Assembly: GCA_951406725.2 (NCBI GenBank)
Contig: OX597819.1
Span: 43,834,001-43,898,000, forward strand
DNA: 64,000 bases
From: Octopus vulgaris
Lineage: Eukaryota
Reading direction: 5' to 3'
Shown one piece after another: positions 29,640 to 30,170 of the stretch. The notes under the pieces are model-generated. The model had not been told where the DNA came from. It made no database searches and saw only the letters and a list, made by a program, of their open reading frames with translations. The stretch's first letter is position 1. Every line of letters starts with the position of its first letter. Both the position numbers and the translations under genes were made by a program.

Positions 29640-30170
29640 TAGGAACTGTAAGAAAAAAAGAATATTTGGTGTATTGTAAGAAGTATAAGCAATTTATTAC
29701 AATTTATGGCGTAGTGCTCTTAAGCACTACACTATATGCCCACGTATAACGTAGTAGTTAAGAGCACGGGCTGCTAACCCCAAGATTCCGAGTTCGATTC
29801 CAGGTAGTGACCTCAACAACAACAACAACAACAACAGCAACAACAACAACAACAACAGCAACAACAACAACAACAACAACAACAACAACAACAACAACAA
29901 CAACAACAACAACAACAACAACAACAACAACAACAACAACAACAACAACAACAACAACAACAACAATAATAATAATAATAATAATAATAATAATAATAAT
30001 AATAATAATAATAATAATAATAATAGCAACAACATCGAAAAATACCTTAGGAATGAGAACCCAGTTTCGAAATTTCCCCAAGATGTATTAACAAGATGAG
30101 GACAAATATCTGTCAATTGTAAATAATGTAAATAATGTACATAATTCCTCATCTCTTAAATATAGAACTG
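29640..30170 (+). mobile_element. tRNA-headed, microsatellite-bodied element (hammerhead-deleted sister of 13997-14175)
   Basis: tRNA-like 29738-29813 with anticodon arm GGG-CTGCTAA-CCC and B-box GTTCGATTC, then (CAA)n(TAA)n, then a tail homologous to 14015-14172. The left boundary is inferred. Confidence 0.8.

Follow-up and report, generated by a model that had tools for sequence, protein, structure and literature searches.

Octopus genomes reportedly contain tRNA-derived retroposons, named OR1, OR2 and OK by Ohshima and Okada in 1994 and said to descend from tRNA-Arg. A 'Twin' SINE of octopus is likewise said to have been reported by Albertin in 2015. Among the Penelope-like elements (PLEs), the Poseidon element PAc from the anole Anolis carolinensis is one of the closest described systems; two internal RT start zones, a tail and the extension of both strands have been shown in vitro, according to the available sections of the source (PMC11167929). 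Minimal hammerheads of PLEs are described in the accessible part of another report mostly as single motifs from truncated copies, sometimes as two motifs on opposite strands 100-700 bp apart (PMC4209133).

Two related repeats of Octopus vulgaris lie in the window, i.e. the whole stretch of 64,000 nucleotides that was analysed. Both are almost certainly truncated pseudo-LTR (pLTR) pieces of an autonomous element of the Penelope/Poseidon type. Membership in the Penelope/Poseidon clade is inferred from the domain order and the likeness to the PAc layout. The sequence-only reading had described two copies of one element. All the parts it named are real, and the region it called the tail is common to 29690-30170 and 13997-14172 (E 6e-24, comparison within the window), but neither copy is complete. 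The long copy (29690-30170) possesses the tRNA-like head and has lost the hammerhead through a 38-nt and a 7-nt deletion after 30083; the short copy (13997-14172) possesses the hammerhead and lacks the head. Head and hammerhead occur together in no window copy.

The long copy opens tentatively with a very short inverted segment from the 3′ part of the pLTR (29690-29704, reverse strand), the start of a left inverted arm, assigned from a by-eye likeness to the reverse complement of 30113-30128 that is below the length of BLAST significance. The inverted partner-arm remnant (29706-29741, reverse strand) consists of a forward head snippet followed by head positions 1-26, inverted at 29716-29741 (88%). 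Together these pieces form the perfect 8-bp hairpin (29711-29730), found where the sequence-only reading had placed it. As a family feature the hairpin was rejected, being a head fragment joined to an inverted head fragment. Remains of a GCCC-AC-GGGC quasi-palindrome mark the twin centre (29738-29744, unstranded). The tRNA-like head of the pLTR (29744-29813, forward strand) is 92% identical to a natural copy and comprises a degenerate A box (29747-29757), the CTGCTAA anticodon-loop motif at 29771 and a B box (29790-29801, announced at 29792). It is followed by an expanded (CAA)n(TAA)n linker (29814-30031, forward strand), whose microsatellite body was confirmed as (CAA)51(AAT)20 at 29814-30025; the pLTR itself includes a short AAT/AAC run. 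The pLTR 3′ part with the hammerhead deleted (30032-30142, forward strand) carries the ORF start codon at 30053. A PLE tail of 28 nt ending GAACTG (30143-30170, forward strand) terminates the copy and is coding sequence for the ORF N-terminus in full-length copies.

GAACTG had been located correctly at both ends, 29643 and 30165, and had been read as fitting a circularly permuted unit; the latter proposal was rejected. The hexamer occurs 25 times in the window, counted on two strands. An element start at 29640 fell as well, the window's own match being the only one to cover query positions 1-73 among 64 genomic matches to 29640-29813. Because only the window itself matches 29640-29712 among these, the first GAACTG is flank. 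The second represents the standard PLE tail end and, where copies are full-length, leads on into the ORF.

The short copy is headless and 5′-truncated inside the AAT/AAC linker (13997-14019, forward strand). Its pLTR 3′ part (14020-14172, forward strand) ends at the first of two 3′-end zones, with the tail absent. From the ATG at 14041, 44 codons encode a stretch homologous to a related PLE protein at its N-terminus (11/20 identical, E 5e-5, pairwise). Target-site duplications were not evident by eye at the two window copies.

Several other repeats lie in the window. Very abundant tRNA-type SINE copies flank the long copy at 29300-29580 (forward strand) and 30196-30360, with a tandem partial duplication at 29300-29530, and a 184-bp two-copy array (58466-58832) appears to be of that family. 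Just downstream of the short copy lies a second, degenerate SINE family (14226-14390, forward strand), which includes what we take to be a CORE-like stretch. Weak matches to the AT-rich flank 29602-29676 were found at 28755-28822 and 45463-45514, possibly an old unrelated repeat. A 289-codon frame (47537-48403, reverse strand) resembles a LINE fragment and gave no Pfam match. The window further contains a 29-bp minisatellite with 12 repeats (51855-52204, 97% matches) and a 216-bp two-copy repeat (26758-27162).

The complete minimal hammerhead motif announced for the short copy is present (14070-14115, forward strand). It is of type I, with a palindromic CG stem III, and comprises stem I (14070-14074/14111-14115), core (14075-14081), stem II (14083-14087/14098-14102) and GAAA-CG-UU (14103-14110); the predicted cut falls after 14110. 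Rfam returned no hammerhead or tRNA match for the whole window at the gathering threshold, and neither for a better copy at E<=10, where the miRNA-family matches of this one copy merely reflect the twin hairpin. The predicted fold of the monomeric hammerhead is not more stable than that of shuffled sequences (z -1.34). Covariation in the stems had been named as a check. Inside the family none was expected or seen, the variation being mostly CpG decay; across related families, stem II sequence varies with pairing kept. Stem II measures at least 4 bp in 25/28 related PLEs, which have the same layout and differing stem II sequences. A U/A polymorphism at hammerhead position N7 (192 vs 37 copies; A at 14079 in the window copy) may serve as a marker of source subfamilies. 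Copies extend across the predicted cut, so their template had been left uncut or had been religated.

The coding partner was recovered from the 2.8-Gb genome, the locus samples being BLAST top matches. A Penelope-type RT fragment adjoining copy L025 gave 150 scored genome matches as query; the sample drawn with it comprises 43 non-redundant loci, after removal of 7 that duplicated others or were the query locus itself. The head lies downstream of the ORF in 30/43 loci, head and hammerhead are both present in 24/43, and some part of the pLTR in 33/43. The earlier assignment of mobilization to a Penelope-like RT is upheld by this order, the head following a Penelope-type RT frame. A natural frame of 569 codons with an RVT_1 match ends about 30 nt before the head. 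At loci selected with the 5′ part of the ORF, pLTR and tail read directly into the ORF. Natural copies with the order pLTR-ORF-pLTR were identified (L260, L261), and L260, L261 and L270 have pseudo-LTRs in partial tandem arrangement.

The column-majority sequence contains one frame of 838 codons, the ATG of which is located inside the pLTR, 34 nt before the hammerhead core. YVDD and GIY-YIG-type motifs occur in this single frame, the GIY-YIG part being recognized by family motifs; the Pfam scan of the ORF did not score this part. Homologous proteins carry RVT_1 and some PF01541, and across the N-terminal region a natural frame shares 40% identity over 224 aa with the beginning of a related protein of 847 aa. 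A PDB sequence search with the element yielded zero matches. The unit thus reads pLTR (head, AAT/AAC run, ATG, minimal hammerhead), 838-codon RT and GIY-YIG ORF, pLTR, and spans about 2.6-2.7 kb. RT followed by C-terminal GIY-YIG in a single ORF and a minimal hammerhead in the pLTR are features of Penelope/Poseidon-type PLEs. Inverted 5′-truncated copies with a 30-40-nt tail at one end are present too, and targets are AT-rich (71% AT in the 20 nt after the tail, 30 loci). Arm 3′ ends are bimodal: of 281 arms, 133 end at +116..+140 and 107 at +160..+175 from the ATG, in a sample partly selected with queries ending at these two zones; 6 arms end between the zones, 22 continue into the ORF and 13 are shorter. 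The proposed non-autonomous hybrid that borrows a PLE enzyme had to be abandoned, since the whole unit is pLTR plus ORF start of an autonomous PLE.

Linkage of head and hammerhead tail within about 500 bp, as predicted by the sequence-only reading, was found in 28/30 head-selected loci, the exceptions being the window copy and L033. Among tail-selected loci, 18/30 have head sequence within 500 bp. A random sample of 40 evenly chosen 10-kb stretches (400 kb) contained 4 insertions, which corresponds to an estimated 28,000 or so in the genome (95% CI 7,600-71,700). Short copies are mostly dispersed head-to-head inverted pairs, at variance with the tandem or permuted copies envisaged before. Head-to-tail arrays of the retrozyme type were considered and rejected: single or inverted dispersed copies dominate and tandem dimers are isolated. 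Internally deleted mini-PLEs were observed at ten loci (L271, L114, L273, L274, L275, L126, L130, L135, L137, L139). They comprise pLTR, tail and 150-800 nt of the ORF start, then jump to a second pLTR; jump points vary, some being exactly at the head start, and the resulting retrozyme-like units measure 450-900 nt. Copies L002, L021, L200, L202 and L211 start within an AAT microsatellite that forms the tail of a LINE-like family (one or two such families are involved), which suggests insertion into, or template switching at, AAT repeats. A third repeat, ending CTCTCTCACTC(AAT)n, is found several times either fused to the pLTR AAT linker or lying within it (L006, L007, L112, L218).

The pLTR begins with a tRNA-like A/B-box head, a feature that is new relative to the related PLEs compared, which are 30-45% identical. 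The tRNA likeness, already noted from the window, was supported by alignment to host tRNA genes and by an A/B-box score above null. The best host matches are tRNA-Arg (z 9.2, 8.0 and 6.6 vs shuffles), followed by Ala (7.2, 6.1), in an alignment to 30 host tRNA genes of six amino-acid types only; the parent is not fixed. The A/B-box score, built from host tRNAs, exceeds the 95th percentile of a shuffled null in 12/16 own copies vs 1/28 related pLTRs. The latter derive from 80 metagenome loci at 30-45% identity, and relatives of 55-68% lie outside this comparison. A strict A/B-box pattern matches 1/4 own copies. ARAGORN detected no tRNA in the window, and the head shows no cloverleaf fold (z +1.44). 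A tRNA-derived head in a PLE pLTR is not described in the portions of the literature covered, beyond whose reach lie the 1994 octopus SINE paper, the 2015 octopus genome paper, Repbase/Dfam and the PMC13282606 repeat library. The short copies may already bear names in Repbase/Dfam, in that repeat library or in the octopus SINE papers.

RNA synthesis probably starts at the tRNA-like head by Pol III. In tail-selected and random loci, 31 arms extend as far as the head start, and 25 of them end within -10..+3, arms not being independent observations; these 25 comprise 21 scored arms and 4 twin centres overrun by BLAST, and 10 further arms that stop inside the head were excluded from the 31. The 5′ ends peak at +1 and -6/-7, also in asymmetric joins. 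By comparison, the inverted partner arms of ORF-bearing insertions stop at the head start in 0/7 cases (Fisher p 1.4e-4 vs 25/31). All seven pass the site, and a local hairpin alone is thus not a stop. Templates therefore seem, from these sequences, to begin at the head. At L260, L134 and L270, the 5′ pLTR joined to the ORF continues upstream past the head, indicating that some templates start elsewhere.

A wider proposal has a little less than an even chance: the whole coding element would be read by Pol III from a captured tRNA promoter as a 2.6-kb unit purged of TTTT, the uncapped RNA would be translated, and the same promoter would give rise to the short twin RNAs. The sense strand of the column majority has 0 TTTT in 2,567 nt. 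For the ORF, 2.9 runs are expected under synonymous shuffling (P 0.027) and 4.0 under a second model (P 0.007). Scattered private runs occur in single copies (22 observed vs 50 expected, 28 copy ORFs). Controls lack such a deficit: 44 related PLE ORFs contain 393 TTTT vs 345 expected, all 22 related PLE ORFs of >500 aa have 4-21 runs each, and 26 other ORFs of the same genome contain 68 vs 77 expected. A5 runs are also scarce in the ORF of the element (7 vs 13.1 expected, P 0.010) and mildly so in relatives (270 vs 313), so a general avoidance of homopolymers contributes to the absence of TTTT. The short stretch before the hammerhead is likewise TTTT-free in 7/28 relatives. The absence is one evolutionary observation in a single lineage, with modest P. 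In contigs of four presumed RNA runs the cover of the pLTR far exceeds that of the ORF, as genomic copy number would give, and runs under five organism labels contain part of the sequence. How an uncapped RNA would be translated was counted against the Pol III reading.

The proposed mechanism places the Pol III start at the head or about 6 nt before it. With no TTTT in the unit, transcripts from this promoter could cover the whole ORF and also tandem multimers. A dimeric protein would nick both strands of an AT-rich target, and reverse transcription would be primed on each strand from the two internal start zones, often with two RNAs. The palindromic stem III of the hammerhead could, speculatively, pair these RNAs. 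If the RNA begins with the head, both cDNAs would run off there and yield SINE-like twins of 300-600 bp; if the head is internal, the enzyme would read through it and produce ORF-bearing copies. The two cDNA ends would be joined by microhomology, often via self-complementary GCCC-NN-GGGC ends. The short RNA might correspond to the 5′ portion of the RNA of the full element or be transcribed from solo tail-bearing pLTRs; the latter, if they were the source, would be true PLE-dependent SINEs.

Insertions are often head-to-head inverted pairs in which one arm ends at the tail and the other some 30-40 nt earlier. Both arms reach the 3′ part in 26 of 43 such pairs; the 28-nt tail is then found on exactly one arm in 24/26, on none in 2/26 and on both in 0/26. 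A snap-back, in which a single cDNA turns round on reaching the RNA 5′ end and serves as its own template, could produce pairs: a small hairpin would form at the 3′ end of the cDNA, and twin arms share slightly more variants than permuted pairs (0.0065 vs 0.0036 per site), which fits some same-template copying or conversion. Divergence between arms amounts to 10.0% vs 10.5% in permuted pairs (50 pairs). With the tail arm placed on the right, snap-back predicts no centre other than AC, but AC accounts for 4 of 18 centres, beside GT 6, TT 2, GA 1, AG 1 and AT 4 (by class, GT-type 9, AC-type 5, AT 4). The shorter arm often bears a tail missing from the long arm (L066, L082, L090, L091, L094, L095, L103), and the arms disagree at N7 in 9/13 pairs carrying the minor base. 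Snap-back is accordingly disfavoured as the main twin mechanism by centre orientation and arm discordance, and can hardly be credited. Centre orientation, tail asymmetry and arm discordance indicate that both target strands act as primers, in many cases with two RNAs as templates. The same pairs have been weighed against an ordinary PLE transcribed by Pol II, with an inert tRNA-derived SINE head captured once and a quasi-palindrome acting as preferred site of cDNA joining or of later deletion. GCCC-AC-GGGC is indeed native to the element, just upstream of the head, and forms the centre of 111 exact 26-nt palindromes genome-wide (reversed control pattern, 0), and the available part of PMC8557442 describes inverted 5′ copies and one-sided tails for PLEs in general. 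This explanation is unlikely: asymmetric joins also end at head +1 or -6 with the partner elsewhere (L175, L184, L206, L208, L224, L225, L270, L271), the partner arms of ORF-bearing insertions cross that site in 7/7 cases, and the absence of TTTT along the ORF is left without explanation.

A separate non-autonomous SINE/retrozyme family, circularly permuted and propagated with a borrowed PLE enzyme via circular or multimeric RNA, would account for the dominance of short copies, none of the 4 insertions in 400 kb of random DNA containing ORF sequence. Isolated tandem mini-units (L021, L271, L114) point in the same direction, and solo pLTRs with intact boxes could be transcribed independently. 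Against it, the short copies have no sequence of their own, every part being found within the pLTR of the autonomous element; the 5′ GAACTG belongs to the flank, copies span the predicted cut, and retrozyme-type arrays were not seen. Such a family is very improbable. The short copies also fail as a distinct SINE family because their whole sequence lies within the autonomous PLE and their ends are the PLE tail or the internal zone. If the preferred reading of a Pol III-started autonomous PLE is true, a coding retrotransposon has acquired a Pol III promoter, combining LINE and SINE in one element. It would show how a SINE-like family can originate from the terminal repeat of the very element that mobilizes it, and tens of thousands of 'SINE' copies, probably mislabelled by repeat pipelines, would owe their spread to a Penelope enzyme instead of a LINE. 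With the twins, the formation of inverted copies and one-sided tails by PLEs can be studied on a large set of natural examples.

Compared by description only, and as far as the descriptions go, the element resembles OR1/OR2/OK and 'Twin' as a tRNA-derived short repeat of octopus with high copy number. OR1 and OR2 are cited as CORE SINEs in the partial sources, but no CORE-like body lies between head and tail of the octopus element. The layout agrees with PAc, as presented in the accessible sections, in the RT followed by a C-terminal GIY-YIG, in an ORF start within the pLTR just before the hammerhead cut, in two internal start zones that set the tail and lie about 110-170 nt inside the ORF, and in AT-rich targets (PMC11167929). 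Unlike PAc, for which these sections describe neither a tRNA head nor a Pol III promoter, the octopus pLTR starts with a tRNA-like head, and most octopus copies are pLTR-only twins. Short stem I, a 5-6-bp stem II after one unpaired base and palindromic positions 15.2-16.2 are shared with metazoan PLE hammerheads, for which the available text, in contrast, reports no tRNA-like promoter (PMC4209133). Animal non-LTR retrozymes (bioRxiv 10.64898/2026.07.22.740005) and the non-autonomous Chlamys/MRC1 (PMC8557442) appear, in the parts at hand, as similar non-coding, pLTR-derived units moved by PLEs. The non-LTR retrozymes are defined there by head-to-tail arrays and are not described with a tRNA head, unlike the octopus copies. 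The schistosome repeats Sm-alpha and Sj-alpha, in the excerpted source, also place a Pol III-type promoter, putative in octopus, before a hammerhead; they are non-coding tandem repeats, whereas the octopus promoter and ribozyme are found within the terminal repeat of a coding element, mostly in inverted pairs (PMC6765202). Cassandra, Helenus and Ajax similarly contain sequence derived from small-RNA genes inside a retrotransposon terminal repeat, but are non-autonomous LTR elements according to the portion available, whereas the octopus element is an autonomous PLE (PMC10886601). The schistosome Pol III-hammerhead repeats and the small-RNA-derived LTRs of Cassandra and Helenus are thus, in these partial sources, the nearest precedents, all of them non-autonomous.
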